Assembly (NCBI RefSeq): GCF_056712565.1
Contig: NZ_CM160072.1
Strand: one strand, 5' to 3'
DNA length: 64,000 nt
The position numbers were made by a program, and so were the translations under genes. Shown here one piece after another: positions 16,190 through 54,579 of the stretch (within the stretch, counting starts at the first letter, position 1; the number at the start of each line of letters is the position of its first letter). The notes beneath the pieces are model-generated. The model searched no databases and was not told the origin of the DNA. It was given only the letters and a program-made list of their open reading frames with translations.

Positions 16190-16405
16190 ATGAGCAACCT
16201 ACGAAAATATCGAGAGTCACTGAATATCTCTCAAACAACACTTGCTAAGGCAGTTGGATGCACACAGGGAGCTATCGGACATTGGGAATCTGGTCGTCGC
16301 TTCCCAGACCTTAAAACATGCCGTGCTCTTGTTGCGTGCCTAAACAAGTTAGGCGCAAAAGTCAGTCTTGATGACGTGTTCCCGCCGGAACACAAAGCCG
16401 CTTAA
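16190..16405 (+). CDS. cro: Cro-like HTH repressor
   Basis: 71 aa MSNLRKYRESLNISQTTLAKAVGCTQGAIGHWESGRR...; GGAGG RBS; divergent from cI. Confidence 0.8.
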   Translation: MSNLRKYRESLNISQTTLAKAVGCTQGAIGHWESGRRFPDLKTCRALVACLNKLGAKVSLDDVFPPEHKAA

Positions 16406-16415
16406 TAAGCGGATC

Positions 16416-16461
16416 CGCTCTTTGTAACAACGGACATTCGTCCTACGTCGCTGAAAAGCGA
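16416..16461 (+). promoter_or_regulatory. nutR (boxA CGCTCTTTGTAACAA and boxB hairpin TCGCTGAAAAGCGA)
   Basis: boxA-like sequence then GAAA-loop hairpin just downstream of cro, same geometry as nutL. Confidence 0.6.
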
Positions 16462-16546
16462 GTTCCAAGATATCTGACCAACTAAGGCCATATGCGTTTC
16501 CACGCATACCTTTCAACTAACTATTCACTATTGGAAATCTTAAGAA

Positions 16547-19971: not shown

Positions 19972-20315
19972 CAATGGATTATTCACAGTTAAGTGATTTT
20001 GAAATTAACAGAATGGTAGGAGACATAATTTTTAAAGGCCTTTGGGCAAGTAAACCGGAAACATCAGGGAATAACACCAACAAATGGTATTACGGAAATG
20101 CTGATACAACTTTTGAGCCATTAAATCATTTGCCTGACTACTGCAATGATCCGAGCGCTTCATGGCCGATTATTGAGAAATACAGGATTTCTATCTTAGA
20201 CCAGTTAACTGAATGGTGTGTGGATGCAAAAGGCGTAAGCCCAATATTTGATACCAGACCTCTCCGCGCCGCCATGATTGTCTTTCTCCTGATGCAGGAG
20301 GCCAATAATGCTTAG
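19968..20315 (+). CDS. Hypothetical nin-region protein
   Basis: 115 aa from [24 protein letters not shown]...; start overlaps ninE stop (ATGA); no recognised domain. Confidence 0.5.
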
Positions 20316-20525
20316 CCCATCTCAATCCCTTCAATACCTGAAAGAAAGCATAGAGCGGGCTTCAATGTGCACAGAGTGGATTCTATCTAGGTTTAGCGCA
20401 TACAGAAGATTGCCGGTAAAGGGCATGCCAAGCAAGTCGATGCTGCATATGCAAAAGAATGCGCGCTGGAAGGTATGGCGAGAACACAGGTTATGTGGCT
20501 GAAAGAGGGGGTTATTAAGGCGTGA
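20308..20525 (+). pseudogene. Mosaic remnant: NinF-like N-terminus joined to YbcO-like C-terminus in another frame
   Basis: Frame 1 starts [18 protein letters not shown] (NinF-like) then diverges; a second frame ends ...[29 protein letters not shown] which matches the C-terminus I recall for DLP12 YbcO. Confidence 0.5.
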
Positions 20526-20884
20526 ATACCTACAGCATCACATTACCCTGGCCTCCGAGCAATAATCGCTATTACCGCCATAATCGCGGGCGCACGCACG
20601 TCAGCGCAGAGGGGCAGGCATACCGCGATAACGTCGCCCGAATCATTAAAAACGCAATGCTGGATATCGGCCTGGCTATGCCTGTGAAAATCCGCATTGA
20701 GTGCCACATGCCGGATCGCCGTCGCCGTGACCTGGATAATCTGCAAAAAGCCGCTTTTGACGCACTCACTAAAGCAGGTTTCTGGCTGGATGATGCTCAG
20801 GTCGTTGATTACCGCGTTGTGAAGATGCCTGTTACCAAAGGTGGGAGGCTGGAACTGACCATCACCGAAATGGGGAATGAATGA
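20522..20884 (+). CDS. rusA: Holliday junction resolvase RusA
   Basis: 120 aa; [48 protein letters not shown]... Confidence 0.92.
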
Positions 20885-21021
20885 TGTTTGAGTTTAATAT
20901 GGCAGAACTTCTTCGCCACCGCTGGGGGCGTCTGCGCTTATATCGTTTCCTCGGTTCTGTTTTGACCGATTACCGAATACTGAAGAATTACGCCAAAACC
21001 CTGACAGGAACAGGAGTATGA
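20881..21021 (+). CDS. ylcG: YlcG-like small protein
   Basis: 46 aa [46 protein letters not shown]; below ORF-track cutoff; same position as ylcG after rusA in DLP12. Confidence 0.7.
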
Positions 21022-21106
21022 AGTCAGAGATAACAATCAACTAATACTGTTTTGTTGATTTTTGCTTGTAATTGGCGTTCTGGTCTGATTTTTGTGGAGT
21101 AAGTTG

Positions 21107-21490
21107 ATGCGTGATATTCAGATGGTTCTTGAGCGTTGGGGTGCGTGGGCGGCTAATAATCATGAAGATGTGACCTGGTCGTCCATTGCCGCCGGTTTTA
21201 AGGGATTAATTCCTTCAAAAGTAAAATCTCGCCCGCAATGTTGTGACGATGACGCGATGATCATTTGCGGGTGCATGGCCCGTCTGAAAAAGAACAACAG
21301 CGATTTACACGATTTATTAGTAGATTATTATGTATGTGGTATGACATTCATGTCACTGGCAAGTAAGCATTGCTGCTCGGATGGTTATATCGGGAAAAGG
21401 TTACAGAAGGCTGAGGGCATAATTGAAGGGATGTTAATGGCATTAGATATCCGGTTAGATATGGATATCGTTGCTAATAATTCTAATTGA
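21107..21490 (+). CDS. quuD: Late gene antiterminator Q (QuuD/phage 82-type)
   Basis: 127 aa from [60 protein letters not shown]...; GGAG RBS. Confidence 0.88.
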
Positions 21491-21626
21491 TATGCAATTG
21501 TTTACTAAAAGTTATTAAAAATGGGGCGTGGAAACGCCCCCAAAATAAAGGGTAATATATAACAGAAGGTTTATATAGTAAGAAGCAAGGTAGTGCTTCT
21601 AAAGGAAGTGGCTTGAGGGCTCCACT

Positions 21627-21669
21627 TATATGTTGCGGAGGCAAAGCCTCCCGCAACATATCTTTTTCG
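21627..21669. terminator. tR'-like terminator downstream of Q; also 10 bp past the porin stop
   Basis: Imperfect hairpin ATATGTTGCGGAGGCAAAGCCTCCCGCAACATAT followed by CTTTTTCG on the plus strand. Confidence 0.65.
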
Positions 21670-21678
21670 TAAGTCAGA

Positions 21679-22761
21679 TTAGAACTGATAAACCAGACCT
21701 ACAGCGACGATGTCGTCGGTATCAATACCAGCTGTTTTGGTAAACTTACTATCGTCAATTAAGTTGATTTTGTAATCAACAAAAGTGGACATGTTTTTAT
21801 TAAAGTAGTAAGTAGCACCGACATCGACATACTTGACTAAGTCTCGGTCACCATGAACACCAAGGTCTTTACCTTTTGACTGAAGGTAAGCAACAGATGG
21901 ACGCAGACCGAAGTCAAACTGATATTGTGCTACTGCTTCAAAGTTTTGTGCTTTGTTTGCAATATGGTTATTACCAAAAACGGTCATATTCTGAGTTTCA
22001 GAATATGTGGTAGCCAGATAGATATTGTTCGCATCATATTTCAGGCCTGCAGCCCATACTTCCGCATTTTTGCCGGAGGCATTGAATTTGCTCTTACCAT
22101 AGGCGACCTGACCGTCAGTGCGATCTGATTTAGCATAGGTTGCACCCACGCCGAATCCTTCATACTCATAAGTAGTGGAGAAACCGAAACCATCACCATT
22201 GGCTTCAGTTACGTCAGTGCGGTCATTTTTACCCTGATACTGAGCAGCAAAGTTCAGGCCATCGACCAGACCAAAGAAGTCGTTGTTACGATAAGTTGCA
22301 ACACCAGTAGTGCGACCAGTCATGAACACATCTGTTTGGGTCCAGGTATCACCACCGAATTCTGGCAGAACGTCAGTCCACGCACCGATGTCGTATGCTA
22401 CACCGTAGTTACGGCCGTAATCGATTGAGCCGTAATCACCAAATTTCAGGCCTGCAAATGCAAGACGGGTTTTGTCTTTGGAAGAACCTTGAGATTCAGC
22501 ACGGTTGCCTTTGAATTCATATTCCCACTGACCGAAACCAGTCAGTTGATCGTTGATTTGGGTTTCACCTTTGAAGCCAAGACGGGCATAAGTAGTATCA
22601 CCATCATCTGCATCATTAGAGGAGAAGTAGTGCTTGGCATTAACTTTCCCGTATAGATCCAGCTTGTTACTGTCTTTATTATAAATTTCAGCTGCCTGAG
22701 CAGACATCGCCATCAGTACTGATGCAGCTACAGCAGAAATTGCCACTGTTAATTTTTTCAT
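21679..22761 (-). CDS. nmpC: OmpC/NmpC-family outer membrane porin (prophage moron)
   Basis: Signal peptide [24 protein letters not shown]-terminal ...VGLVYQF beta-barrel terminus, porin-like body; inserted between Q and lysis genes on the opposite strand. Confidence 0.88.
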
Positions 22762-23187
22762 TGTACGCCCTTTTTTTGAACTATTATTAAAAAATGATGT
22801 CACTGCGCGATAAATATTCATCTAATCAATGTGATTATTTCAAGATGTAAGTTTTAGTTTCTCATTTAATTTGTGAAGTAGATCTCTATTTTTATCTGAA
22901 CCTTTTCTATCTAATCCTATTCATGGCTCTTGTCTGAACAAAAATAAATCTATTAGCTAATTTATATTAATGGCACTTATTTATAAGTGCTCTATAATTC
23001 TTTAGCTTAATTTAAACAAACTAAAAATAACATTGGAAATTATTAACTGGTTATTTGTTGAAGTTTTCTTATGCATTTGTGGTGGTGTTTTGAACACTCG
23101 GTGGCATTCTCACAAATATCATTTAGTAGTTTACGTACGTAAAAAATTGGTTATGCTGTTAAGAGTGGTTACTTCGTCACACAGCTT

Positions 23188-23220
23188 AAACCCGCCGTCG
23201 AGCGGGTTTTTCCATTTTTT
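23188..23220 (+). terminator. Orphan rho-independent terminator in porin-holin intergenic region
   Basis: AAACCCGCCGTCGAGCGGGTTTTTCCATTTTTT. Confidence 0.5.
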
Positions 23221-23349
23221 GAGTCTCGATATTAGCTGATAACCCAATACCTGAGTTATTCACTGACTCCGAATCTGTTACGTTTCTGCCTTTATTGCGA
23301 TACGTAGTATCCCCTTAATTTACACCCGCTTTGTCTGCGAGGTGGGGTT

Positions 23350-24551: not shown

Positions 24552-24845
24552 TTATTGTGAGCAATACACACGCGCTTCCAGCGGAGTATAAATGCCTAAA
24601 GTAATAAAACCGAGCAATCCATTTACGAATGTTTGCTGGGTTTCTGTTTTAACAACATTTTCTGCACCACCACAAATTTTTGCTGCATCGACAGTTTTCT
24701 TCTGCCCAATTCCCGAAACGAAGAAATGATGGGTGATGGTTTCCTTTGGTGTTACTGCTGTAGGTTTGTTTCCAACAGTAAACGTCTGTTGAGCACATCC
24801 TGTAATAAGCATTGCCAGAGCGGCAGAAAACAACATTTTTTTCAT
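24552..24845 (-). CDS. bor: Bor lipoprotein (serum resistance, lysogenic conversion)
   Basis: 97 aa from MKKMLFSAALAMLITGCAQQTFTVGNKPTAVTPKETITHHFFVSGIGQKKTVDAAKICGG... Confidence 0.9.
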   Translation of the reverse strand: MKKMLFSAALAMLITGCAQQTFTVGNKPTAVTPKETITHHFFVSGIGQKKTVDAAKICGGAENVVKTETQQTFVNGLLGFITLGIYTPLEARVYCSQ

Positions 24846-25325: not shown

Positions 25326-25652
25326 ATGAAAAGACGCCTTTTACTACTTTTTCTGTTATCTGTCCTGGCAGTGGGATGCTCGCAGCAAAAAGCTGATGAG
25401 CCCCGGCAATTAGTGACGGTGTATCCACGATATCCGGAATATGCTGCAGCAAATTATATCAAGGGGCTGGTTGAGGTTAAGTTCGATATTGGTGCTGATG
25501 GGACTGTGACACGGATCGTTTTTCTCCGCTCAGAGCCTCATAATTTGTTTCGTGATGAAGTGGTGAAGGCCATGGCGAAATGGCGATTTGAAAAGAATCG
25601 CCCCTGTCAGGGAGTGAAGAGACAATTTATCTTTACGCCGTCACGTCCTTGA
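25326..25652 (+). CDS. Putative lipoprotein with TonB C-terminal-like domain
   Basis: 108 aa from MKRRLLLLFLLSVLAVGCSQ (lipobox); YPRYPEYAAANYIKGLVEVKFDIGADGTVTRIV resembles TonB C-terminal domain. Confidence 0.55.
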   Translation: MKRRLLLLFLLSVLAVGCSQQKADEPRQLVTVYPRYPEYAAANYIKGLVEVKFDIGADGTVTRIVFLRSEPHNLFRDEVVKAMAKWRFEKNRPCQGVKRQFIFTPSRP

Positions 25653-29242: not shown

Positions 29243-30831
29243 AACGAACGCCTGTCCTGATTGATGTGAACGGCGTTCCGCTTCGTGAGAGTCTCAGCTA
29301 CAACGGGGGCGGTGCAGGATTTGGCGGGCAAATGGCTGAGTGGTTGCCACCGGCGCAGAGTGCCGATGCGGCCCTGCTGCCCGCGTTGCGTCTGGGGAAT
29401 GCCCGGGCAGATGATCTGGTGCGCAATAACGGAATAGCGGCTAATGCGGTGGCTCTGCATAAGGATCACATTGTCGGGCATATGTTTCTGATTAGCTACC
29501 GTCCGAACTGGCGCTGGCTGGGGATGCGGGAGACCGCAGCAAAAAGCTTTGTCGATGAGGTGGAGGCGGCCTGGTCGGAATACGCCGAAGGGATGTTTGG
29601 CGAGATCGACGTGGAAGGAAAACGCACGTTCACGGAATTTATCCGTGAAGGTGTGGGCGTTCATGCGTTTAACGGCGAAATCTTTGTGCAGCCGGTCTGG
29701 GATACGGAGAGTACGCAACTGTTTCGTACGCGTTTTAAAGCCGTGAGTCCGAAACGGGTGGACACGCCAGGACACGGTATCGGGAACCGTTTTCTGCGGG
29801 CCGGTGTGGAGGTTGATCGATATGGCCGTGCCGTCGCGTACCATATCTGTGAGGATGATTTTCCGTTCTCTGGTAGTGGACGATGGGAACGGATCCCGCG
29901 TGAACTTCCCACCGGGCGTCCGGCCATGCTGCATATTTTCGAGCCGGTGGAGGACGGGCAGACCCGTGGGGCTAATCAGTTTTACAGCGTTATGGAACGG
30001 CTGAAGATGCTCGATTCCCTGCAGGCAACACAGCTTCAGTCGGCCATAGTGAAGGCGATGTATGCAGCGACGATTGAAAGTGAACTTGATACCGAAAAGG
30101 CCTTTGAATATATCGCCGGCGCGCCACAGGAGCAGAAGGATAATCCGCTTATTAATATTCTGGAGAAGTTTTCCAGCTGGTATGACACGAATAGCGTGAC
30201 GCTGGGCGGTGTCAAAATTCCGCACCTTTTCCCTGGTGATGATCTGAAACTACAGACTGCGCAGGATTCAGACAATGGATTTTCTGCGCTTGAACAGGCG
30301 CTGCTGCGGTATATCGCCGCCGGTCTTGGCGTTTCCTACGAACAGTTGTCCCGTGATTACTCGAAGGTCAGTTACTCAAGTGCCCGCGCCTCCGCCAATG
30401 AGTCGTGGCGCTATTTTATGGGGCGGCGAAAATTTATTGCGGCCCGGCTGGCCACGCAGATGTTTTCCTGCTGGCTGGAAGAGGCACTTCTTCGGGGGAT
30501 TATTCGTCCGCCACGGGCACGTTTTGATTTTTATCAGGCGCGATCAGCCTGGTCACGGGCAGAGTGGATTGGTGCCGGAAGAATGGCCATTGACGGGCTC
30601 AAGGAAGTCCAGGAATCAGTGATGCGCATTGAGGCCGGACTGAGCACGTATGAGAAAGAGCTGGCGCTGATGGGCGAGGATTATCAGGACATTTTCCGCC
30701 AGCAGGTCAGGGAATCTGCTGAGCGGCAAAAAGCCGGACTCTCACGTCCGGTGTGGATAGAGCAGGCGTATCAGCAGCAGATAGCGGAGAGTCGCAGGCC
30801 GGAAGAGGAGACAACACCACGTGAGACGTAA
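29239..30831 (+). CDS. B: Portal protein B
   Basis: 530 aa from MKRTPVLIDVNGVPLRESLSYNGGGAGFGGQMAEW (lambda gpB-like). Confidence 0.92.
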   Translation: MKRTPVLIDVNGVPLRESLSYNGGGAGFGGQMAEWLPPAQSADAALLPALRLGNARADDLVRNNGIAANAVALHKDHIVGHMFLISYRPNWRWLGMRETAAKSFVDEVEAAWSEYAEGMFGEIDVEGKRTFTEFIREGVGVHAFNGEIFVQPVWDTESTQLFRTRFKAVSPKRVDTPGHGIGNRFLRAGVEVDRYGRAVAYHICEDDFPFSGSGRWERIPRELPTGRPAMLHIFEPVEDGQTRGANQFYSVMERLKMLDSLQATQLQSAIVKAMYAATIESELDTEKAFEYIAGAPQEQKDNPLINILEKFSSWYDTNSVTLGGVKIPHLFPGDDLKLQTAQDSDNGFSALEQALLRYIAAGLGVSYEQLSRDYSKVSYSSARASANESWRYFMGRRKFIAARLATQMFSCWLEEALLRGIIRPPRARFDFYQARSAWSRAEWIGAGRMAIDGLKEVQESVMRIEAGLSTYEKELALMGEDYQDIFRQQVRESAERQKAGLSRPVWIEQAYQQQIAESRRPEEETTPRET

Positions 30832-32326
30832 TCTTTCACACATTATTGCCGCAGCATTCAATGAACCGCTGCTTCTGGAGCCCGCCTATGCGCGGGTTTT
30901 CTTTTGCGCGCTCGGGCGCGAGATGGGGGCAGCAAGTCTTTCGGTACCACAACAGCAGGTACAGTTTGATGCTCCCGGAATGCTGGCTGAAACGGACGAG
31001 TACATGGCCGGAGGTAAACGACCGGCCCGTGTTTACCGGGTGGTGAACGGTATTGCTGTACTGCCGGTGACCGGCACGCTGGTGCACCGGCTGGGTGGTA
31101 TGCGGCCATTTTCCGGAATGACAGGCTATGACGGCATTGTCGCCTGTCTTCAGCAGGCAATGGCGGATAGCCAGGTGCGGGGCGTACTGCTGGACATTGA
31201 CAGTCCGGGCGGGCAGGCCGCCGGCGCGTTTGACTGCGCTGACATGATTTACCGCCTCCGTCAGCAGAAGCCGGTCTGGGCACTGTGCAATGACACGGCC
31301 TGTTCTGCAGCCATGCTGCTGGCGTCGGCCTGCTCCCGACGGCTGGTTACCCAGACATCCCGTATCGGCTCCATTGGCGTGATGATGAGCCATGTCAGCT
31401 ATGCCGGTCATCTGGCGCAGGCCGGTGTGGATATCACGCTGATTTACTCAGGGGCGCACAAGGTGGATGGCAATCAGTTTGAAGCGTTGCCGGCAGAGGT
31501 TCGCCAGGACATGCAGCAGCGGATTGATGCGGCGCGCCGGATGTTTGCCGAAAAAGTGGCGATGTATACCGGTCTGTCTGTTGATGCCGTCACGGGAACA
31601 GAGGCTGCCGTTTTTGAAGGTCAGTCCGGCATTGAGGCCGGGCTGGCGGATGAATTAATCAATGCGTCGGATGCCATCAGTGTGATGGCCACGGCGCTGA
31701 ACAGTAATGTCAGAGGAGGCACTATGCCGCAATTAACTGCAACGGAAGCCGCCGCGCAGGAGAACCAGCGAGTGATGGGGATCCTGACATGCCAGGAAGC
31801 GAAAGGACGTGAACAGCTTGCCACGATGCTGGCAGGACAACAGGGCATGAGCGTTGAACAGGCCCGGGCGATTCTGGCCGCGGCGGCACCGCAGCAGCCG
31901 GTGGCATCCACGCAGAGTGAAGCCGATCGCATTATGGTGTGTGAAGAAGCGAACGGTCGTGAACAACTGGCGGCAACGCTGGCGGCGATGCCGGAGATGA
32001 CGGTGGAAAAAGCCCGCCCGATCCTGGCGGCTGCACCACTGGCGGATGCCGGACCATCACTCCGTGATCAGATCATGGCCCTGGATGAGGCAAAAGGGGC
32101 TGAGGCGCAGGCTGAACAGCTGGCTGCCTGCCCGGGAATGACAGTGGAGAGCGCCCGGGCTGTGCTGGCTGCGGGATCAGGTAAGGCAGAACCGGTCTCT
32201 GCATCCACAACCGCCATGTTTGAACATTTCATGGCGAACCATTCACCGGCAGCGGTACAGGGTGGCGTGGCACAGACGTCAGCAGACGGTGATGCGGACG
32301 TGAAAATGCTCATGGCCATGCCATGA
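30821..32326 (+). CDS. C: Capsid assembly protease C (S49 family) with in-frame scaffold (Nu3) region
   Basis: 501 aa; N-terminus AAFNEPLLLEPAYARVFFCAL and S49 core match lambda gpC; C-terminal part carries three tandem ~45 aa repeats. Confidence 0.88.
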   Translation: MRRNLSHIIAAAFNEPLLLEPAYARVFFCALGREMGAASLSVPQQQVQFDAPGMLAETDEYMAGGKRPARVYRVVNGIAVLPVTGTLVHRLGGMRPFSGMTGYDGIVACLQQAMADSQVRGVLLDIDSPGGQAAGAFDCADMIYRLRQQKPVWALCNDTACSAAMLLASACSRRLVTQTSRIGSIGVMMSHVSYAGHLAQAGVDITLIYSGAHKVDGNQFEALPAEVRQDMQQRIDAARRMFAEKVAMYTGLSVDAVTGTEAAVFEGQSGIEAGLADELINASDAISVMATALNSNVRGGTMPQLTATEAAAQENQRVMGILTCQEAKGREQLATMLAGQQGMSVEQARAILAAAAPQQPVASTQSEADRIMVCEEANGREQLAATLAAMPEMTVEKARPILAAAPLADAGPSLRDQIMALDEAKGAEAQAEQLAACPGMTVESARAVLAAGSGKAEPVSASTTAMFEHFMANHSPAAVQGGVAQTSADGDADVKMLMAMP

Positions 32327-42108: not shown

Positions 42109-45100
42109 ATGGGTAAAGGCAGCAGTAAGGGGCATACCCCGCGCGAAGCGAAGGACAACCTGAAATCATCCCAGATGCTGAGCGTGATAGACGCCATCAG
42201 CGAAGGGCCGGTTGAAGGTCCGGTGGATGGATTAAAAAGCGTGCTGCTGAACAGTACGCCGGTGCTGGACAGTGAGGGGAATACCAATATATTCGGCGTC
42301 ACGGTGGTGTTCCGGGCCGGTGAGCAGGAGCAGACTCCGCCGGAGGGATTTGAATCCTCCGGCTCCGAGACGGTGCTCGGTACGGAAGTGAAATATGACA
42401 CGCCGATCACCCGGACCATCACGTCGGCAAACATTGACCGTCTGCGTTTTACTTTCGGCGTGCAGGCACTGGTGGAAACCACCTCAAAGGGGGACAGGAA
42501 TCCATCGGAAGTCCGCCTGCTGGTTCAGATTCAACGTAACGGTGGCTGGGTGACGGAAAAAGACATCACCATTAAGGGCAAAACCACCTCGCAGTATCTG
42601 GCCTCGGTGGTGGTGGATAACCTGCCGCCGCGCCCGTTTAATATCCGGATGCGCAGGATGACGCCGGACAGCACCACAGACCAGTTGCAGAACAAAACGC
42701 TCTGGTCGTCATACACCGAAATCATCGATGTGAAACAGTGCTACCCGAACACGGCACTGGTCGGCGTACAGGTGGACTCGGAGCAGTTCGGCAGCCAGCA
42801 GGTGAGCCGTAATTATCATCTTCGCGGGCGCATTCTGCAGGTGCCGTCGAACTATAACCCGCAGACGCGGCAATACAGCGGTATCTGGGACGGAACGTTT
42901 AAGCCAGCATACAGCAACAACATGGCCTGGTGTCTGTGGGATATGCTGACCCATCCGCGCTACGGCATGGGGAAACGTCTTGGTGCGGCAGATGTGGATA
43001 AATGGGCGCTGTATGTCATCGGCCAGAATTGCGACCAGTCAGTGCCGGACGGCTTTGGCGGCACGGAGCCGCGCATCACCTGTAATGCGTACCTGACCAC
43101 ACAGCGCAAGGCGTGGGATGTGCTCAGTGATTTCTGCTCGGCGATGCGCTGTATGCCGGTATGGAACGGGCAGACGCTGACGTTCGTGCAGGACCGACCG
43201 TCGGATAAGGTGTGGACCTATAACCGCAGTAATGTGGTGATGCCGGATGATGGTGCGCCGTTCCGCTACAGCTTCAGCGCCCTGAAAGACCGCCATAATG
43301 CTGTTGAGGTGAACTGGATTGACCCGGATAACGGCTGGGAGACGGCGACAGAGCTTGTGGAGGACACGCAGGCCATTGCCCGTTACGGTCGTAACGTCAC
43401 GAAGATGGATGCCTTTGGCTGTACCAGCCGGGGGCAGGCACACCGCGCCGGGCTGTGGCTGATTAAAACGGAACTGCTGGAGACGCAGACCGTGGATTTC
43501 AGCGTCGGCGCAGAAGGGCTTCGCCATGTACCGGGTGATGTTATTGAAATCTGCGATGATGACTATGCGGGGATCAGCATTGGCGGGCGCGTGCTGGCGG
43601 TGAACAGCCAGACCCGGACGCTGACGCTCGACCGTGAAATCACGCTGCCATCCTCCGGTACCACGCTGATAAGCCTGGTTGACGGTCAGGGTAATCCGGT
43701 CAGCGTGGAGGTCCAGTCCGTCACCGACGGCGTGAAGGTGAAAGTGAGCCGTGTTCCTGACGGCGTTGCAGAATACAGCGTGTGGGGGCTGAAGCTGCCG
43801 ACGCTGCGCCAGCGCCTGTTCCGCTGCGTGAGTATCCGTGAGAACGATGACGGCACGTATGCCATCACCGCCGTGCAGCATGTACCGGAGAAAGAAGCCA
43901 TCGTGGATAACGGGGCGCACTTTGACGGTGACCAGAGCGGCACGGTGAATGGTGTCACGCCGCCAGCAGTGCAGCACCTGACCGCCGAAGTCACTGCAGA
44001 CAGCGGGGAATATCAGGTGCTGGCGCGATGGGACACACCGAAGGTGGTGAAGGGCGTGAGCTTCCTGCTCCGTCTGACCGTAACAGCGGACGACGGCAGT
44101 GAGCGACTGGTCAGCACGGCCCGGACGACGGAAACCACATACCGCTTCACGCAACTGGCGCTGGGGAACTACAGGCTGACAGTCCGGGCGGTAAATGCCC
44201 GGGGGCAGCAGGGCGATCCGGCGTCGGTATCGTTCCGGATTGCCGCACCGGCAGCACCGTCGAGGATTGAGCTGACGCCGGGCTATTTTCAGATAACCGC
44301 CACGCCGCATCTTGCGGTTTATGATCCGACGGTACAGTTTGAGTTCTGGTTCTCGGAAAAGCGGATTACCGATATCAGGCAGGTTGAAACCACAGCCCGC
44401 TATCTTGGTACGGCGCTGTACTGGATAGCCGCCAGTATCAATATCAAACCGGGCCATGATTATTATTTTTACGTTCGCAGTGTGAACACCGTTGGCAAAT
44501 CGGCATTCGTGGAGGCTGTCGGTCGGGCGAGCGATGATGCGGAAGGTTACCTGGATTTTTTCAAAGGAGAAATCGGGAAAACACATCTGGCCCAGGAGTT
44601 GTGGACGCAGATTGATAACGGTCAGCTTGCGCCGGACCTGGCTGAAATCAGGACGTCCATTACGAATGTCAGCAATGAAATCACGCAGACCGTCAATAAA
44701 AAACTGGAAGACCAGAGTGCGGCAATCCAGCAGATACAGAAAGTTCAGGTTGATACAAATAATAACCTGAACAGCATGTGGGCCGTGAAACTGCAGCAGA
44801 TGAAGGACGGACGCCTTTATATTGCGGGTATTGGTGCCGGTGTTGAGAATACTCCTGACGGTATGCAGAGTCAGGTGCTGCTGGCGGCGGACAGGATTGC
44901 GATGATTAATCCTGCGAATGGCAACACAAAGCCGATGTTTGTTGGGCAGGGCGATCAGATATTCATGAACGAAGTGTTCCTGAAATATCTGACGGCTCCC
45001 ACCATTACCAGCGGTGGCAATCCCCCAACGTTTTCACTGACACCTGATGGTCGACTTTCTGCGAAAAATGCGGATATCAGCGGTAACGTGAACGCGAACT

Positions 45101-45591
45101 CCGGGACGCTCAACAACGTCACGATTAATCAGAACTGTCGGATTCTGGGAAAACTGTCAGCTAACCAGATTGAAGGTGATATTGTCAAAACGGTGGGAAA
45201 AGCCTTTCCGAGAAATGGCAGTTATGCCAGCGGTACAATAACGGTCACTGTGTACGATGACCAGGCTTTTGACCGTCAGATAGTAGTCCCCCCCGTTCTG
45301 TTTCGTGGGGGTAAGCATGAAAACTTCAACAGCAACAACCAACAGTCATACTGGTATTCAACCTGTAAGCTGCAGGTACTGAAGAACGGACAGGAAATCT
45401 TTCAGCAACCCGCGACGGATGTCAGCAGGGTATTTTCATCAGTCATTGATATGCCTGCCGGACACGGCCATGTCACCCTGACTTTCAATGTTTCTTCATA
45501 TGGTGCTAATAACTGGACGCCAACGACCAGTATCAGCGACCTTCTTGTTGTTGTGATGAAGAAATCTACAGCCGGTATCAGTATCAGTTGA
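42109..45591 (+). CDS. J: Central tail fibre / host specificity protein J
   Basis: 1160 aa; lambda J-like throughout, with fibronectin-III-like repeats and a C-terminal receptor-binding region that looks diverged from lambda. Confidence 0.93.
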
Positions 45592-45643: not shown

Positions 45644-47710
45644 GTGAATATGGCAGTACAGATTTCAGGCGTGCTGAAAGACGGTGCAGGAAAACCGATA
45701 CAGAACTGCACCATTCAGCTCAAAGCAAAACGTAACAGCACCACGGTTGTGGTGAACACGGTGGCCTCAGAAAATCCGGATGAAGCCGGACGTTACAGCA
45801 TGGATGTCGAGTATGGCCAGTACAGCGTTATCCTGCTGGTTGAAGGTTTTCCGCCTTCACATGCCGGGGCCATCACCGTGTATGAGGATTCTAAGCCGGG
45901 GACATTGAATGATTTTCTGGGCGCTGCAACAGAAGATGATGTTCGTCCGGAGGCACTGTATCGTTTTGAAAAGATGGTGGAAGAGGTGGCACGCAACGCT
46001 GAAGCCGCCTCTCAGAGCGCAGCGGCAGCAAAGAAATCAGAAACAGCAGCGGCATCGTCCAGGAATGCGGCGAAAACATCAGAGACGAATGCAGGTAACA
46101 GCGCGAAAGCGGCAGCTTCTTCAAAAACAGCCGCACAAAACGCAGCAACAGCGGCAGAACGTTCAGAGACAAATGCCCGTGCGTCAGAAGAAGCCTCCGC
46201 AGACAGTGAAGAGGCTTCCCGCCGTAATGCAGAGTCAGCCGCTGAAAATGCCGGAGTCGCCACCACAAAAGCGCGGGAGGCCGCAGCAGACGCAACAAAG
46301 GCCGGGCAGAAAAAGGATGAGGCTCTGTCGGCAGCGACACGGGCTGAAAAGGCGGCAGACCGCGCAGAAGTCGCAGCGGAAGTGACTGCAGAGCCCTATG
46401 CGAATATAGTGCCGCCGCTGCCTGATGTGTGGATACCGTTTAACGATTCACTGGATATGATTGCGGGTTTTTCTCCGGGCTATAAAAAAATAGCTATTGG
46501 TGACGATGTGGTTCAGGTCGCCAGTGATAAACAGGTTAATTTCAGTCGCGCATCAACGGCAACATATATCAACAAATCTGGCGAACTGAAAACGGCGGAA
46601 ATTAATGAGCCGCGATTTGAGTGTGATGGCCTGCTTATTGAGGGACAAAGAACGAACTACATGCTCAATTCGGAAAGTCCAGCCAGCTGGGGGAAGTCAT
46701 CAAACATGGATGTGCCCGAAACCGGGACAGATAGTTTTGGTTTTACTTATGGAAAGTTTGTCTGCAACGATTCTCTGGTTGGGCAAACTTCGGCTATTAA
46801 TATGGCATCAATTGCTGCAACAAAGTCAGTTGATGTCTCAGGCGATAACAAGTACGTGACAACCTCATGCCGTTTTAAAACAGAACGACAGGTAAGGTTA
46901 CGTATACGGTTTGATAAGTATGATGGTAGTGCAACAACTTTTCTTGGCGATGCGTACATTGATACGCAAACGCTTGAAATTAATATGACAGGTGGGGCTG
47001 CCGGCAGAATTACGGCACGAGTCAGGAAGGATAAGACCACAGGCTGGATTTTTGCAGAGGCAACGATTCAGGCAATTGATGGTGAGTTAAAAATAGGCTC
47101 TCAGATACAGTATTCTCCTGAGCGGGGTGGGGCAACAGTATCTGGTGACTATATTTATCTTGCCACCCCACAAGTAGAGAATGGGCCGTGTGTATCATCA
47201 TTTATTATTTCAGGAGGCAGCGCAACGACAAGAGCCAGTGATTTGGTTAGTATCCCCACCAGAAATAATCTTTATAAGTTACCATTTACTTTTTTACTTG
47301 AGATTCATAAAAACTGGGATATTGCACCAAACGCCGCACCCCGCGTGTGGGATATAGCAGCAGCCAATACCGGGCAATCAGCAATTGCAGCAATCAACAG
47401 AGGTAGTGGTAAGTTATATATGAGTCTGTCAAACCCTTCAGGCTTGTATGTTAATAGCGCAGCGACAGATGTATTTGCAGAGAAAACCACATTTGGATGT
47501 ATTGCAAAAGCTGATGGTCACTTTCATGTGGTGACAAATGGTAAAGCGGTTAATGAAGTTTATTGTGAATATAATGGTGTGACCGCTGATAAAAATATCC
47601 GATTTGGAGGGCAGACGAATACTGGAGAACGACATCTGTTTGGCCATATTCGCAATTTCCGCATATGGCATAAAGAATTAAATGACAGGCAATTAAAAGA
47701 GGTCGTATGA
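45644..47710 (+). CDS. stf: Side tail fibre protein, chimeric: lambda Stf-like N-terminus, Ala-rich linker, novel AT-rich C-terminal domain
   Basis: N-terminal ~110 aa (M)AVQISGVLKDGAGKPIQNCTIQLKAKRNSTTVVVNTVASENPDEAGRYSMDVEYGQYSVIL match lambda Stf; C-terminal ~400 aa unrelated to lambda. Confidence 0.85.
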   Translation: MNMAVQISGVLKDGAGKPIQNCTIQLKAKRNSTTVVVNTVASENPDEAGRYSMDVEYGQYSVILLVEGFPPSHAGAITVYEDSKPGTLNDFLGAATEDDVRPEALYRFEKMVEEVARNAEAASQSAAAAKKSETAAASSRNAAKTSETNAGNSAKAAASSKTAAQNAATAAERSETNARASEEASADSEEASRRNAESAAENAGVATTKAREAAADATKAGQKKDEALSAATRAEKAADRAEVAAEVTAEPYANIVPPLPDVWIPFNDSLDMIAGFSPGYKKIAIGDDVVQVASDKQVNFSRASTATYINKSGELKTAEINEPRFECDGLLIEGQRTNYMLNSESPASWGKSSNMDVPETGTDSFGFTYGKFVCNDSLVGQTSAINMASIAATKSVDVSGDNKYVTTSCRFKTERQVRLRIRFDKYDGSATTFLGDAYIDTQTLEINMTGGAAGRITARVRKDKTTGWIFAEATIQAIDGELKIGSQIQYSPERGGATVSGDYIYLATPQVENGPCVSSFIISGGSATTRASDLVSIPTRNNLYKLPFTFLLEIHKNWDIAPNAAPRVWDIAAANTGQSAIAAINRGSGKLYMSLSNPSGLYVNSAATDVFAEKTTFGCIAKADGHFHVVTNGKAVNEVYCEYNGVTADKNIRFGGQTNTGERHLFGHIRNFRIWHKELNDRQLKEVV

Positions 47711-48291: not shown

Positions 48292-48382
48292 AAAAAGGTG
48301 AGCTGTATATGCAACGGAGGAAGAAACCCCGTTGCTGGAAGCCAGGAAAAAGTATCGGGTGTTGCTGTCCTCGGATGTTGTG

Positions 48383-49240
48383 CTAATTGGGTGATAACAG
48401 ATCCTGTGTATGGGAGTTTCCCTTTTTGCGTGCGTTGATGCTGGTAACGGCAAACGTCATGATGAACAAAACCGCGAATAAGACGACAATCGTCGGAGCT
48501 GGTGCGCTGTCGATAAAAAAGGACAACCAGACACCAGTCATTGACACTATTACCGATATGCCAGTCGCCAGTAGGAGCGCAATATGAAAGCGTTGTGTCA
48601 GGAGTACCGCAATGGCGCCAGGCGCAATGAGCAGAGAAATGGAGAGAATGATACCTACCGCTTTCAGCGTCGCCACAATGGTCAGAGAGACCATGCACAG
48701 CAGCCCATAATGCAGCCATCTCGTATGCAAACCGCTTACCTGCGCCTGTTGATAATCAAAGCTGAACAGCAAAAAATCCCGCCATTTTACGCTAATAACA
48801 AGTGTAACCAGCCCGGCAATAATCATCGTCTGGATTATATCGCCGATGGTTATCCCGAGCATGTCGCCGAAAAGAATATGGTCAAGATGTACGTCTGGTT
48901 TGACTGCAATATACAAGATCAGACCTGCGGCAAACATGCCAGAAAAAACAATCCCCATCACTGTATCTTGCTTGATTCGGCTGTTGTCTTTCAGGTATCC
49001 CGTCGCCACCGCGCAGAATACTCCGGCGACGAATGCCCCTGTAGCCAAAGGTAACCCCAGAATCCAGGCAAGCACGATTCCAGGAAAAACCGCATGACTC
49101 ATCGCGTCACCCATCAGTGCCCAACCTTTCAGGACCAGAAAGACCGACAGCAGCGCACAGGGTATGGAAACTACCAGTGAAATCAGCAGTGCGTGACTCA
49201 TAAAGGTGAACTGCAGTGGCTCCAGTAATAATGCCATCAT
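48383..49240 (-). CDS. sitD: Mn/Fe ABC transporter permease SitD
   Basis: 285 aa polytopic membrane protein of the ABC-3 permease family, last gene of a four-gene operon. Confidence 0.85.
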   Translation of the reverse strand: MMALLLEPLQFTFMSHALLISLVVSIPCALLSVFLVLKGWALMGDAMSHAVFPGIVLAWILGLPLATGAFVAGVFCAVATGYLKDNSRIKQDTVMGIVFSGMFAAGLILYIAVKPDVHLDHILFGDMLGITIGDIIQTMIIAGLVTLVISVKWRDFLLFSFDYQQAQVSGLHTRWLHYGLLCMVSLTIVATLKAVGIILSISLLIAPGAIAVLLTQRFHIALLLATGISVIVSMTGVWLSFFIDSAPAPTIVVLFAVLFIMTFAVTSINARKKGNSHTQDLLSPN

Positions 49241-50094
49241 GAGCGATCCTCCAGCGCCTTATGCGCACGCCGACGATTTGCCAAAAGCCCATGGGTGGGC
49301 GCAAAGACAAATGCTAAAAGAAACAGCAGTGTCTGCGCCACCACGATGATTCCACCTGTCGCGCCGTCCAGAAAGTAACTGACCCACGCGCCGAGGAAAC
49401 TAGTTACACTGCCAATAGTTACAGCAATCATGAGCAGGCGGGGAAAACGATCGGTTAACAACCATGCTGTTGCACCGGGAGTCACCACCAGACAGATCAC
49501 CAGAAAGGCACCAACCGTTTGCAGCGCCGCAACGGTCGAAACCGACAGCAGGGTGAAGAAGATGAGTTTTAATCTGCCCGGATGCAATCCAATAGCACGG
49601 GCGTGATTCTCGTCGAAAAAGGTCACCATAAGATCTTTCCATTTGAAAAAAAGCACGATGATCGAGAGAATGCCAATGATAGTGAGTTGCAGGATATCCG
49701 CCGGATCGATTGCCAGAATATTGCCCAGGACGATGGTCTGAATGTTCACAGATGTCGGGTTCAATGACACCATAAACAGCCCCAGGCCAAAAAAGGACGA
49801 GAAGATCAGACCGATGATGGCATCTTCTTTTAAGCGGGTGCGTTGGTTAAGAAACAGCATGCTGCCCGCAGCCAGTCCGCCGGAAAAGAAGGCTCCCAGA
49901 GAAAACGGAAGCCCCAGCATATATGCCCCCGCAACACCCGGGACAATAGAGTGCGACAACGCATCGCCAATCAGCGACCAGCCTTTTAGCATCAGATAGC
50001 ATGACAGGAAAGCGCAGAGACCGCCGACCATCGCCGAGACCCACATCGCATTGAGCATATATTCATAGCTGAAGGGTTCCAGTAGCACGTTCAT
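49237..50094 (-). CDS. sitC: Mn/Fe ABC transporter permease SitC
   Basis: 285 aa ABC-3 family permease, paralogous to SitD. Confidence 0.85.
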
Positions 50095-50918
50095 CTTTCT
50101 TCCCTCTGCACCGCTGACGGTCGATGAGCCACAAAAGGGCGTTCATCGTCAGTAATAATGCTTTCTTCCGAGCCGTTAAGTGTGACATGGCGCAGTACGC
50201 CGCTAAAAGCCAGCTCCAGGTTCTCGGCTGTAAAAGTGGTGTCTGTCGGCCCGCTTGCCAGGACGGTGCCTTTGACCATGACCGTATAATCGCAAAATGT
50301 CGTGACGGATCCGAGATTGTGTGTTGAGACAAGCATCGTTTTGCCTTCCGCGCGTAACTCCCTCAACAGGCTGATGATTTTGGCTTCGGTTTTCACATCA
50401 ACGCCGGTAAAAGGTTCATCCAGCAGGATCACATCACCCTGCTGTGCAATCGCTCTCGCCAGAAAGACGCGTTTCTTTTGTCCACCGGAAAGCTCGCCGA
50501 TTTGTCGATGGCGAAAATTCACCATATCGACACGTTCCAGCGCATCGGTGACAATCTGACGATCCCTCTTTTTGGCGATACGCAACATACCCATATGCCC
50601 ATAGCGGCCCATCATCACCACATCTTCCACCAGTACAGGAAATGACCAGTCAACATCTTCTGACTGAGGGACGTAGGCAACCAGGTTTTTCTGTAACGCC
50701 TGTCGCGTGGGAATACCCAGAACAGATATCTTTCCGCTGGTCAGACGCACAAATCCCATAATCGCTTTAAACAACGTCGATTTTCCGGAACCGTTTACCC
50801 CAACCAGAGCGGCAATAGATCCGCCTGGTACTGTGAAGGATGCATCGCGCAGTGCTGTGTGCCCGTTACGCCAGGTGACAGTAACATCATTAACGACAAT
50901 GCCTGCAGATTGCATCAT
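50091..50918 (-). CDS. sitB: Mn/Fe ABC transporter ATP-binding protein SitB
   Basis: 275 aa; Walker [13 protein letters not shown] signature LSGGQKKR, Walker B ILLDEP. Confidence 0.9.
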
Positions 50919-51832
50919 TATTTCTCCCTTTTCCCAGCTTTAATTCCCTGTACCAGCGTACTGGTAGTAACCTTAAGAAGGTCGATATACGTCGGTACCG
51001 GGCCGTTTTCTGTGCTCAGGGAATCGACATAGAGCACACCGCCGTAGTGTGCGCCGGTTTCACGCGCAACCTGACGCGCTGGTTTATCGGAAATCGTACT
51101 CTCGCTAAAGACTGCCGGGATATGATTTTTCTTAACTATATCAACAACCTTACGTACCTGCTGCGGTGTTCCTTGTTGATCGGCATTAATCGGCCACAGA
51201 TAAAGCTCTTTTAGCCCCAAATCGCGTGCGAGATAAGAAAAAGCCCCTTCACTGGTGACCATCCATCGCTGATTCTCAGGGAGTTCCGTAATCTGCTTAC
51301 GCAGGGGGGCAAGGGTTTGGGTAATCTTGGCTTTATAAGTATCGGCATTGCGTTGGTAGGTTTGTGCATTTGCCGGATCGTATTTTATCAACGCATCACG
51401 AATATTATCGACGTAAATCAGAGCATTATCTGGCGACATCCATGCATGGGGGTTAGGTTTGCCCTCATAGGGTCCTTCGGTGATCCCTACAGGCGTCACA
51501 CCCGAAGAGACAATTACTTCTGGAACCCCATTGAGATGCTGGTAAAAGCGTTGGAACCACAATTCCAGATTCATACCATTGGCGAGAATCAGTTGTGCCC
51601 CCTGCGCACGTTTAATATCGCCAGGGGTAGGCTGATACTCATGAATTTCTGCACCAGGCTTGGTTATGGATGAGACTTCTGCAGCATCTCCCGCCACGTT
51701 TTTGGCCATATCCGCGATGATGGTAAATGTTGTAATGACCTTGAATTTTTCAGTTGCACTTGCCTGAAATGCGATCGAGCAGGTGAGTGCGAGGCCCCCC
51801 AAGAGCATGGTTACTTTTTTTATCGAGTGCAT
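50918..51832 (-). CDS. sitA: Periplasmic Mn/Fe-binding protein SitA
   Basis: 304 aa with signal peptide; cluster 9 (TroA/ZnuA-like) solute-binding protein. Confidence 0.88.
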
Positions 51833-51864
51833 AATTTAGTACCTATAGTGAGCAAAATTAGAAC

Positions 51865-51886
51865 AAACATAGCAACGGCTATGTTT
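51865..51886. promoter_or_regulatory. MntR operator: perfect inverted repeat AAACATAGC-n4-GCTATGTTT
   Basis: Palindrome about 35 bp upstream of the sitA start. Confidence 0.75.
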
Positions 51887-51908
51887 TATAGCACAACCTA
51901 TACAAAAT

Positions 51909-51927
51909 GAAAATGATTATCATTAGC
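51909..51927. promoter_or_regulatory. Fur box
   Basis: GAAAATGATTATCATTAGC matches 16 of 19 positions of GATAATGATAATCATTATC, in the sitA promoter region. Confidence 0.7.
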
Positions 51928-52239
51928 GGTTTTGAGGCCCAAAACAGGGATTAGGTTGTTTCCGGCTGGCGACGCGTTATTGAGGAAAAAAGTAAGGCAG
52001 CTAGTAGGCTTTGAAATAACGTTTTGCGGTTGGCTGATGCAATTTCGAGAGTGCATGTATTGAATGATTTCTAGCCGTTACTGATTTTCGTATTTTTTGT
52101 ATGGGAGGATTTGCACCTCTCCCCACCGAGCCTCCATGACTTTACTCCACTGTCTCTAGGGCTGCTGTGTGCCAGGAGCGGAAGCAGGGGGGCCAGAGAC
52201 TCCTTAAAAGTTGATAGCTCGTTTTGCAGGGAGACTTAC

Positions 52240-52330
52240 ACGGTAAGCGTTATTCCGAAGAGCTTAAAATTGAAGCAGTCAAACGGGTTGTTGAGCGTGT
52301 TTATGCGCTGCCATCTGATTAATCGACGGA
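52240..52330 (+). mobile_element. Short remnant of an IS3-family transposase orfA N-terminus
   Basis: Frame translating HGKRYSEELKIEAVKRVVER resembles the SGKRYPEEFKIEAVKQVVDRG motif of IS150/IS3-group OrfA; only ~25 codons then a stop. Confidence 0.4.
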
Positions 52331-52518
52331 AGCAGTTCCGTTTGGTCTATGATGCAGTTGTCCGGCAGGCGCTCTGTGACGCAAAAGAACGATAGGAGTA
52401 GCATTGAAGTGAACGAGGTTATGCTTGTCTTATATTATCCTCTATTTTAAAAACATCAGCTGGTTGTGTAAGAGTTTTTATTGTTTTATCTTGTTGACTT
52501 TGCTTTTATGAAAACAGA

Positions 52519-53289
52519 GTGATTGATACAATGAAAACCTTAAGTGGGAAAGAGTTTAGGAAATTATTTAATCGTTATGAGACAGGATTCTATCTAAGTG
52601 AGTTTGAATACTTAAAGGACTTTGATCCTTTGTTTCCTGAATGCGTAGGGAAAGAATTAAAGTTGGGTTATAAACGAAAAGTTGATGTATGGTGCGAAGA
52701 GGATGCTGCGCTATATGCAGAATTTATAGCTACAAAAGAAAGGCTGAAAAGAGGCCGGTTAATCCTAAAAATAAACCAAGTGTGGTCGCGTGTATATCCT
52801 GCTTATATTTATGCAATTGAAGAAAGAATAAATGTCAGGGCAAAGGGGAGAGAGTCATTTAAGTATGAAACTGTGCAAGAAAAACAATGTAAACTTTCCA
52901 TAATGTTAGATGGTCTGAAAGACCTTGAATGTGAAATAGCTATGATTTCAAGTGAGTTTGAAATTGAAAAACACTCTATGCACTATTTTTATATGATTTT
53001 TGATATTGAACGCTATATAAATGACTGCAGTTACTTTGTTTTTTCTGCTGCTAAAGTTGTTAAAGGCGTGATTCAATGCATTGGTTACATTGACAAAAAT
53101 AACAAAGCAAGTTGCGATGAATTTTATTCAGGCAGCTATGAATGCTTGGATGATGATCAGGAAACACTGAACTATTTAAATGAATCATGCGCAGAGGGTA
53201 TAGACGCTGATAAAGATCTCATCAGGAAGAATGAGTTATTAGCCTTATCCCTGAAGGAATTGTATCAACTTCTCGTTTCAAAAAAATAA
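52519..53289 (+). CDS. Hypothetical protein (256 aa), AT-rich orphan cargo gene
   Basis: Long ORF in ~33% GC DNA between sit operon and attR; no recognisable domain; start could be Met1 or Met5. Confidence 0.6.
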   Translation: MIDTMKTLSGKEFRKLFNRYETGFYLSEFEYLKDFDPLFPECVGKELKLGYKRKVDVWCEEDAALYAEFIATKERLKRGRLILKINQVWSRVYPAYIYAIEERINVRAKGRESFKYETVQEKQCKLSIMLDGLKDLECEIAMISSEFEIEKHSMHYFYMIFDIERYINDCSYFVFSAAKVVKGVIQCIGYIDKNNKASCDEFYSGSYECLDDDQETLNYLNESCAEGIDADKDLIRKNELLALSLKELYQLLVSKK

Positions 53290-53749
53290 CAAGTAATACG
53301 GCGAGCGATATGACGTGCCATGGGATATCCGCACCCAGCAGCATGTTGTCTCCACGATGTCCGCAGTTCGCTCATAATAGACATTCACTACAGTTATAGT
53401 AGAAGGTATGCATGCTGCTGAGTGGGGAAAGTGTGAAAGAAAAGAAGACAGCTGCTTTGTTTGTCGTCACGTTTATCTTCATTGGCTATGCAAGTCGTAA
53501 TACAAGGCGGGACAAAACTGAGACACATAAGGCCTCGCAATGGCTTGCAAGGCCACACATGTATTGAGATGTTAATAAAATGTAGACTTGTAATTTTGAT
53601 ATAAATGGTAGAGAAAATCTTTCCCCAAAATAAAAACGAACGTCAATGAAATCAAACGGTTGAATAAAGTTGATTTTGGCTAATACAAAGACAAGAAAAT
53701 AATATTTATGATTAAATATCAGCGAGTTGAATACATAATTTTTATATAC

Positions 53750-53913
53750 TGCTGCGCCATATGGGCTGGACTGAAGCCGCAGACCTGATTGTTAAAGGTA
53801 TGGAAGGTGCAATCAACGCGAAGACCGTAACCTATGACTTCGAACGTCTGATGGAAGGCGCTAAACTGCTGAAATGTTCAGAGTTTGGTGACGCGATCAT
53901 CAAGAACATGTAA
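53750..53913 (+). pseudogene. icdC: Displaced icd 3' fragment (icdC-like) = right copy of att duplication
   Basis: Encodes ...[53 protein letters not shown] with no upstream icd body; repeat of 6327..6490. Confidence 0.88.
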
Positions 53914-53966
53914 TCTCTACATGTGTTAAATATTGAAACGGGCGTATAACACGCCCGTTGTTTTTA
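53750..53966. repeat. Right copy of icd 3'-end direct repeat (attR side)
   Basis: See 6327..6541; includes a copy of the icd terminator hairpin. Confidence 0.85.
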
Positions 53967-54174
53967 TAAATATGTTAACCGTTATAAAATAACGTATCAA
54001 AAGTCAAGTGAACACATTTCAAATATCAATTTGATCGTATTGGTCTGGTGATTATTTATGGGGAGCAATAAAAAGACAGTATTAATCATCCATAGGGATA
54101 GTCTCTGCACTTTTATTTCCATTATGCTAATGCCTTACTGAATTATGAAGCATTTTTTAAGCTCCCAACTTTAG

Positions 54175-54579
54175 CTAGATTAATGGTTTATTATTTTCTA
54201 CATCTTCAATATATAAAAGCGTATTATCAATGGCGTAGTAACTGCGTTTGTTATGATTAACATCAGTAACCCACCGGAAAACGCCAGCGCCTGCCAGTGT
54301 TGAACAGTATTCCCGAAATGTAGATTTTCCGCGAATATGAAGCAATGCGGCCTCTTTTATTTTAGCTGGGTTCTTGGTCGTACTAACTTTTAACAGGTTC
54401 CTGGTTCCTCTTAATAACAAAACCGTGTCATCGTGAGTAATAATTCTGATGTTATCCGTAGCCAGATAATAAATGTAATGTGCAATACGGTGATGTTTTA
54501 ATTCTGAATAAAACCAGGAGAAGTTTTGCTCTTTTCTCACTTGCTCAAACATCTTTTGAAAAACAACGACCTGATCCAT
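54175..54579 (-). CDS. ycgX: YcgX (DUF1398 family)
   Basis: 134 aa MDQVVVFQKMFEQVRKEQNFSWFYSELKHHRIAHYIYYL... Confidence 0.8.
   Translation of the reverse strand: MDQVVVFQKMFEQVRKEQNFSWFYSELKHHRIAHYIYYLATDNIRIITHDDTVLLLRGTRNLLKVSTTKNPAKIKEAALLHIRGKSTFREYCSTLAGAGVFRWVTDVNHNKRSYYAIDNTLLYIEDVENNKPLI

Follow-up and report, generated by a model that had tools for sequence, protein, structure and literature searches.

A sitABCD manganese/iron importer operon with predicted Fur and MntR operators in the b region of a phage 21-type prophage of Escherichia coli SF-468

The object of this analysis is a sitABCD metal-uptake operon located in a stretch of 64,000 nucleotides (nt) of Escherichia coli DNA (contig NZ_CM160072.1 of assembly GCF_056712565.1), the whole of which is referred to here as the window. 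Between positions 48000 and 52500 the window matches the E. coli SF-468 chromosome (NZ_CP012625.1, reverse complement) with 100% identity; this strain, of human blood origin, carries a 47.4-kb lambdoid prophage in icd. The operon occupies the minus strand near the right-hand end of this prophage and consists of four intact open reading frames (ORFs). These are sitA (50918-51832, 304 residues), encoding a periplasmic Mn/Fe-binding protein with an N-terminal signal peptide; sitB (50091-50918, 275 residues), encoding an ATP-binding cassette (ABC) ATPase; and sitC (49237-50094) and sitD (48383-49240), each encoding a permease of 285 residues. Each ORF has one terminal stop codon, the stop and start codons of neighbouring genes overlap, and the genes follow one another in the order A-B-C-D in a single operon. 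In the identical record NZ_CP012625.1, RefSeq labels the four genes SitA-D.

The family assignments agree with these labels. SitB matches the NCBIfam equivalog NF011630 (manganese/iron ABC transporter ATP-binding protein) over positions 1-274 of 274 with 592.9 bits against a cut-off of 393. SitA gives full-length NCBIfam matches to Mn/Fe substrate-binding families (E = 5e-62), with scores under the cut-offs of those families, and for SitC and SitD the full-length matches are to families of metal ABC permeases, again with scores under the cut-offs of those other families. The ATPase subunit of a SitABCD/YfeABCD-type importer, and the binding protein and two ABC-3 permeases that accompany it, were therefore all found. 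The Sit systems of Salmonella, Shigella and avian pathogenic E. coli (APEC) are described as transporting both Mn2+ and Fe2+ (PMC3852070).

The position of the operon relative to the ends of the prophage was determined from the attachment sites. A 215-nt direct repeat, comprising the final 164 nt of icd and 51 nt downstream, is found at 6327-6541 and again at 53750-53964 (96% identical, spacing 47,423 bp), and it is the sole long direct repeat within 5000-54500. Both copies were aligned to the annotated attP of phage 21 (OL657228). The copy on the side of the integrase gene has host icd at its left and the phage CTTCCCCAAAAC arm repeats at its right, whereas the far copy has, at its left, phage DNA identical to that found left of attP in phage 21 and, at its right, host DNA. 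Judged by this alignment, the two junctions are the recombinants that a phage 21-type attP would form on integrating site-specifically into icd. The left-hand site (attL, 6327-6541, plus strand) thus contains an icd 3' end that is partly phage-supplied, followed by three arm-type CTTCCCCAAAAC repeats and int, and the right-hand site (attR, 53750-53964, plus strand) contains the displaced icd' 3' fragment, annotated as a pseudogene at 53746-53913. Since attP bears a copy of the 3' end of icd, integration leaves icd intact together with an icd' fragment. The features that characterize the attachment site of phage 21-type phages (Jouyvirus) are accordingly all present, namely an intact icd, an icd' fragment, a tyrosine integrase and an attP with an icd 3' copy. 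E. coli genomes in which the icd site is unoccupied align to the far flank only from 53750/53755 onwards. The sit operon lies 1.8 kb inside the right-hand att copy, and the preliminary description of this DNA, which had placed a complete operon inside the prophage between the tail genes and attR, is upheld by the four intact ORFs, the att repeat and the phage gene order.

The same arrangement is found in phage genomes that have been deposited as such. Among 28 matching records in the phage collection, 26 E. coli phage records (phage 21 and 25 others) contain the sit operon at an identity of at least 99%, and the sit-bearing phages include phage 21, ev017, ev207, 1H12, Perceval and the PhiR series. 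Both phage 21 and ev017 (LR597643) have J and the side tail fibre gene followed by two small genes and sitDCBA, after which come a hypothetical gene, the icd' fragment, attP and int, and the order around sit in the SF-468 window is the same. By blastn, the SF-468 prophage is collinear with ev017 across 47,602 of 47,638 nt at 97.6-99.6% identity. The corresponding comparison with phage 21 covers 39,890 of 47,638 nt, with 99.2% identity over the 27.5 kb that run from cos through sit to att. Taken together, the phage records, the att junctions, the empty sites and the collinearity therefore identify sit as phage cargo. Two properties expected of a phage moron were found: the operon lies inside a packaged phage genome, as seen from the phage records and the att duplication, and it is dispensable, since PhiR63_1, 2G7b and ev243 share the tail-fibre module but have other genes in the same slot. 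In infant-gut lambda phages, sitABCD has been reported on 70%, in each case with a fur box, the remaining 30% being without sit (Mathieu et al. 2020, PMC6969025).

The DNA upstream of sitA contains two candidate operators. A perfect 9-4-9 palindrome, AAACATAGC-AACG-GCTATGTTT, lies at 51865-51886, 33-54 nt upstream of the sitA ATG, and matches the MntR half-sites at 18/18 positions. No second match occurs in the 64 kb at up to 3 mismatches, and 0.06 matches are expected by chance in shuffled sequences. Further upstream, at 51909-51927 on the minus strand, the sequence GCTAATGATAATCATTTTC matches the 19-bp Fur consensus GATAATGATAATCATTATC at 17/19 positions when read on the coding strand; on the plus strand, as first quoted, the match is 16/19. 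The window has no other Fur-box matches, and 0.01 were expected from the shuffles. Both sites had been proposed in the preliminary description, the palindrome as perfect and the second site as Fur-box-like, and both are confirmed, the palindrome as exact and unique in the 64 kb. Between and around them a sigma-70 promoter of sitA is predicted (51885-51913, minus strand), with -35 hexamer TTTTCA (51913-51908), a 17-nt spacer and the extended -10 element TGcTATAAA (51893-51885), an assignment of hexamers that we read from the sequence. The end of the Fur box overlaps the predicted -35, and the MntR palindrome overlaps the 3' end of the predicted -10 by two bases. On the coding strand the order is thus Fur box, -35, spacer, extended -10, MntR palindrome, a weak Shine-Dalgarno sequence and the ATG at 51832.

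The palindrome has a counterpart in the host. In K-12 the sequence AAACATAGC-CTTT-GCTATGTTT lies 13-34 nt before the start codon of mntH, its 9-nt half-sites identical to those at sit and its 4-nt spacer different, and mntH, like sit, encodes an importer of Mn2+. The K-12 mntH palindrome also falls within an annotated small ORF, ypeD (3688-3777 of the retrieved K-12 mntH upstream sequence). At the K-12 mntS/mntR locus no MntR palindrome was found at up to 3 mismatches. Near mntH there was likewise no Fur consensus at up to 3 mismatches, as against the 17/19 box at sit. Because of these two negative results, the MntR site of mntH is the only K-12 comparator available for the sit operators. It was at mntH that dual repression by Fur and MntR was first described (Patzer and Hantke 2001, via PMC8264917).

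We also aligned the sit promoters of the SF-468 prophage, phage 21, a ColV plasmid, a second chromosomal site near uspF, and Salmonella pathogenicity island 1 (SPI-1). Compared with Salmonella, 15/19 positions of the Fur box, 18/23 positions between the boxes and 15/18 positions of the MntR half-sites are identical, and 0/4 positions of the palindrome spacer. Over the whole stretch from Fur box to MntR box this amounts to 48/64 identical positions, compared with 58/138 in the flanks (41/103 upstream, 17/35 downstream), and this stretch is the only part of the promoter DNA that is conserved between the two. A chance origin of the palindrome and of the Fur match was considered and is ruled out by the shuffles together with the conservation with mntH and Salmonella. 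The palindrome of the Salmonella sit promoter is reportedly an MntR site, a result said to go back to Ikeda and co-workers in 2005. Repression of both MntH and SitABCD by Mn-MntR is stated in a review (PMC3852070), which gives Ikeda 2005 as its source for Salmonella and Runyen-Janecky 2006 for Shigella, and a fur box upstream of phage-borne sit has been reported (PMC6969025). Fur and MntR would thus be expected to bind the DNA upstream of sitA. The mntR gene was found in 5421 of 5426 complete E. coli genomes. The suggestion that the phage-borne operon is wired into host metal regulation is supported by the half-sites being those of mntH, by the conservation of the operator block in Salmonella and by the near-universal presence of mntR.

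It is very likely that sitABCD in SF-468 is a moron with its own promoter, situated in the b region (from the tail-fibre genes to attP) of a phage 21-type temperate phage integrated at the 3' end of icd, and that it encodes an Mn/Fe importer controlled by Fur and MntR. We propose the following mechanism on the basis of the operator sequences and of work on orthologous promoters. In the lysogen, sit would be transcribed from a sigma-70 promoter of its own, in a direction convergent with that of the silent late operon. Host Fur charged with Fe2+ would bind the box over the -35, and host MntR charged with Mn2+ would bind the palindrome that overlies the predicted -10 and start site, so that the operon would be silenced by an ample supply of iron and manganese and expressed when the two metals run short. 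The SitA binding protein, the SitB ATPase and the SitC and SitD permeases would then assemble into a high-affinity, periplasmic-binding-protein-dependent ABC importer of Mn2+ and Fe2+. Such an importer would supplement MntH and Feo and aid the lysogen under metal limitation and oxidative stress, and the phage would gain because its host does better. A more specific benefit can be imagined, in which phage sit under Fe/Mn scarcity raises Mn import, so that the DNA suffers less oxidative damage and SOS-dependent spontaneous induction becomes rarer, the phage thereby using Fur and MntR to stabilise lysogeny. We consider this to have a slim chance of being correct.

Since a variable 'PAI sit' (pathogenicity island sit), rich in insertion sequences (IS), is known at several chromosomal sites from the older literature (PMC7545054), and the same sit DNA occurs on plasmids and near uspF beside IS elements, sit could in principle belong to a host genomic island situated just beside the prophage, in which case the att duplication would not be the real boundary. 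The probability of this is negligible. The phage records have sit between the tail fibres and attP, the phage 21 attP alignment shows phage DNA on both sides of sit, the genomes with an empty site align only from 53750, and the collinearity with ev017 spans the whole 47.6 kb; a host island beside the prophage is ruled out on these grounds. The preliminary description had named sit lying outside the true prophage boundary as the finding that would overturn it, and on the evidence of the phage genomes, the attP alignment and the empty sites the operon is inside. A quite different proposal is that the 22-nt palindrome functions chiefly in RNA, as a hairpin (an attenuator or terminator in the sitA leader), rather than as an operator for a protein. 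A consensus scanner does score it as terminator-like, with a 9-bp stem followed by a T-rich tail. However, only 3 pairs of the stem are G-C, half-sites of the same sequence occur upstream of mntH with a different spacer, and the Salmonella copy has uncompensated changes (C4 opposite A19; T1 opposite C22) that would weaken a hairpin, and yet Salmonella sit is still repressed by Mn-MntR (PMC3852070). Furthermore, since the predicted -10 overlaps the palindrome, much of the palindrome would lie at or before the start of transcription. We therefore regard a hairpin as its main function as highly improbable.

Whether the SF-468 prophage can still move is a separate matter. If it were grounded and non-inducible, sit would in effect be a fixed chromosomal operon. 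RefSeq flags two small accessory genes as defective, one zapA-like and frameshifted, the other a truncated DUF1364 gene. A 2.5-kb early-left accessory block of ev017 (EaA-like and other genes; 29750-32268 of the retrieved ev017 sequence) is missing from the SF-468 prophage at window positions 8660-8671. The relative Perceval is moreover the least produced virion in strain LF82 (PMC9928086). Nevertheless, the genes for integration, excision, immunity, replication, antitermination, lysis, packaging, head and tail are all there at 97.6-99.6% identity to a sequenced phage, the length of 47.4 kb is near that of the sequenced relatives (42.9-50.1 kb), and both att sites are intact, so that a grounded prophage appears unlikely. 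The zapA-like frameshift and the missing 2.5 kb nonetheless weigh against our interpretation of sit as a mobile moron with its own promoter, as do two results at the ends of the operon. A stricter consensus scan did not call the sitA promoter, because its -10 ends in A, and no canonical intrinsic terminator was found past sitD, where there is a modest hairpin only (z = -2.1).

The limits of the sit DNA were defined from junction alignments. ColV-type plasmids and the second chromosomal site, near uspF/ompN, match the window from 48356 to approximately 52025 only, which implies that sit travels as a 3.66-kb unit carrying both operator sites. This cassette (about 48356-52025, minus strand) is made up of the four genes plus approximately 190 bp of promoter/operator DNA. 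The location originally given for the operon, 48383-51930, thus falls slightly short of the sit-specific DNA, whose limits are at about 48356 and about 52025. On the plasmids, sit is found between a Tn3 remnant and IS1 and adjoins the aerobactin genes, and at the uspF site it adjoins an IS3-family element. It may be that the cassette moves as a unit among the phage b region, ColV plasmids and other prophage remnants. On the phage side, sit-less sister phages share the tail-fibre module as far as the gene for a 97-residue membrane protein and diverge at 48367/48368. In 2G7b and ev243 the slot contains a methyltransferase, an alpha/beta hydrolase and OmpT, and in PhiR63_1 it contains a Pin recombinase and DinI. 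At the left junction the phage backbone and the cassette share the 12-nt stretch CGGGTGTTGCTG (48356-48367), which may be a trace of microhomology-mediated capture or may be due to chance.

At about 52240-52320 on the plus strand, upstream of sitA, a short peptide, GKRYSEELKIEAVKRVVER, is similar to the N-terminal end of OrfA proteins of the IS3 family and could be a relic of the event by which sit was acquired. Searches for an IS3 relic there, by blastn and tblastn against the ISEc52 copy beside another sit locus and against the plasmid flanks, gave nothing significant, and NCBIfam gave nothing, which leaves an unverified resemblance over 19 residues. The annotators of the phage 21 record judged a similar IS3-like match unconvincing.

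The closest comparisons are with phage 21 itself, of the icd-integrating genus Jouyvirus and recorded as 'paris sewer late 1950s'. It shares with the SF-468 prophage the icd site, the attP with an icd 3' copy, the terminator, the CTTCCCCAAAAC arm repeats, int and xis. The half from cos to att is 99.2% identical, with sitDCBA at 99.7% and the same b-region genes. The two do not share the immunity region (12647-16514) or the Q/porin region (19981-23348) of SF-468, and unlike phage 21 the SF-468 prophage also has an NmpC-like porin. The temperate phage ev017, which comes from the infant gut, and its relatives ev207, 1H12 and Perceval have the same morons, namely sit, bor/iss, the NmpC porin and the TonB fragment. 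For Perceval, whose sit is 99.7% identical to that of the SF-468 prophage, expression data are available: in LF82, sitA, sitB, sitC and sitD are transcribed 13-, 10-, 4- and 5-fold above the prophage background (Misson et al. 2023, PMC9928086), and this phage makes particles (PMC9928086). The earlier proposal that sit is cargo mobilised by a temperate phage is supported by the deposited phage genomes that carry it and by Perceval, an active relative in whose lysogen sit is expressed.

The related sit loci outside phages differ more. Salmonella SPI-1 and Shigella flexneri have the same four-gene importer, the Salmonella sit DNA being approximately 73% identical. The block of Fur box, -10 and MntR box is conserved in the Salmonella promoter, and no alignment was obtained outside it. 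The Salmonella operon is in SPI-1 and not in a phage, and the Shigella copies are in decayed, IS-rich islands (PMC7545054). The sit of the ColV/ColBM plasmids of extraintestinal pathogenic E. coli (ExPEC) and APEC is the same 3.66-kb cassette with the same ends, at 96.8% identity, and includes the Fur and MntR boxes, with one half-site base different (AGC to AGT) and two Fur-box bases different in the promoter of the ColV plasmid.

Among the 5426 complete E. coli genomes, 2770 contain sit sequence. The exact junction between phage DNA and sitD was found in 1187 (approximately one in five), and the junction between the sit promoter and the b region in 780, among them the species type strain, ATCC 11775. 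Carriers of a phage-sit junction include the type strain of the species and many ExPEC strains. The presence of sit on phage 21-type prophages is already known, very common and published, which the preliminary description did not note, and the GenBank record OL657228 already annotates SitA-D. No new question is opened by this locus, because the cargo and its fur box, the frequency of sit among gut lambdoid phages and the expression of sit by lysogens have all been published. The portions of Mathieu et al. 2020 and Misson et al. 2023 on which we draw contain no mention of an MntR box on phage-borne sit. The locus is nonetheless a clean case of lysogenic conversion, in which a temperate phage spreads a metal-uptake virulence/fitness operon that would answer to the metal sensors of its host. 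Its value lies in the context that it provides for annotation and for understanding how sit spreads.

The remainder of the prophage and its surroundings are described from the RefSeq annotation of NZ_CP012625.1 unless otherwise indicated. To the left are the host genes phoP-purB-hflD-mnmA-nudJ-rluE, followed by icd, which is intact (5240-6490, plus strand, 416 residues). The phage begins with int, encoding a phage 21-type tyrosine integrase of 380 residues (6604-7746, minus strand), and the adjoining xis, encoding the excisionase, in a region with 97.5% DNA identity to phage 21. The early genes follow in the order exo, bet, gam, kil, cIII, ral and sieB, and then come genes for a cI-type repressor, cro and cII, followed by O, P, ren, the nin genes, rusA and Q. 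From annotation and PHROG, three likely morons lie in the next part of the prophage: an NmpC/OmpC-like porin (21679-22761, minus strand), the iss/bor serum-survival lipoprotein (24552-24845, minus strand) and a TonB C-terminal-domain fragment (25326-25652, plus strand). The counterparts of these three genes in Perceval are reported to be expressed in lysogens (PMC9928086). The genes for holin, endolysin and Rz come after that for the porin, and the cos site was placed at 26415/26416 from its homology with the termini of the phage 21 genome.

Beyond cos are the terminase, portal, head and tail genes and then J (42109-45591). The plus-strand segment 45644-48291, defined from its ORFs, the phage 21 annotation and PHROG 1361 and 1443, contains the side tail fibre gene (45644-47710, 688 residues) and small conserved genes for proteins of 92 residues and 97 residues, the latter being the membrane protein. 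The side tail fibre module and these two small genes are the final backbone genes ahead of the cargo slot and are common to the sit-less sister phages. RefSeq breaks the side tail fibre gene into a pseudogene and a separate gene, but the ORF is continuous and collinear with the 2061-bp gene of phage 21, and the split is probably an artefact of the annotation. Between the sit cassette and attR, the remainder of the b region (52026-53749, plus strand) is 99% identical to phage 21 and ev017. It contains a gene of approximately 39% GC (52519-53289, plus strand) for a 256-residue protein of unassigned function (phrog_20520), conserved in both of these phages, for which Pfam and NCBIfam gave no match and PADLOC no significant match. 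To the right of the prophage are the host genes ycgX, bluR and bluF and those that follow as far as minE. In many E. coli genomes iraM lies between icd' and ycgX; it is absent here at 53914-54175, and the genomes that have iraM align to this flank as two pieces.

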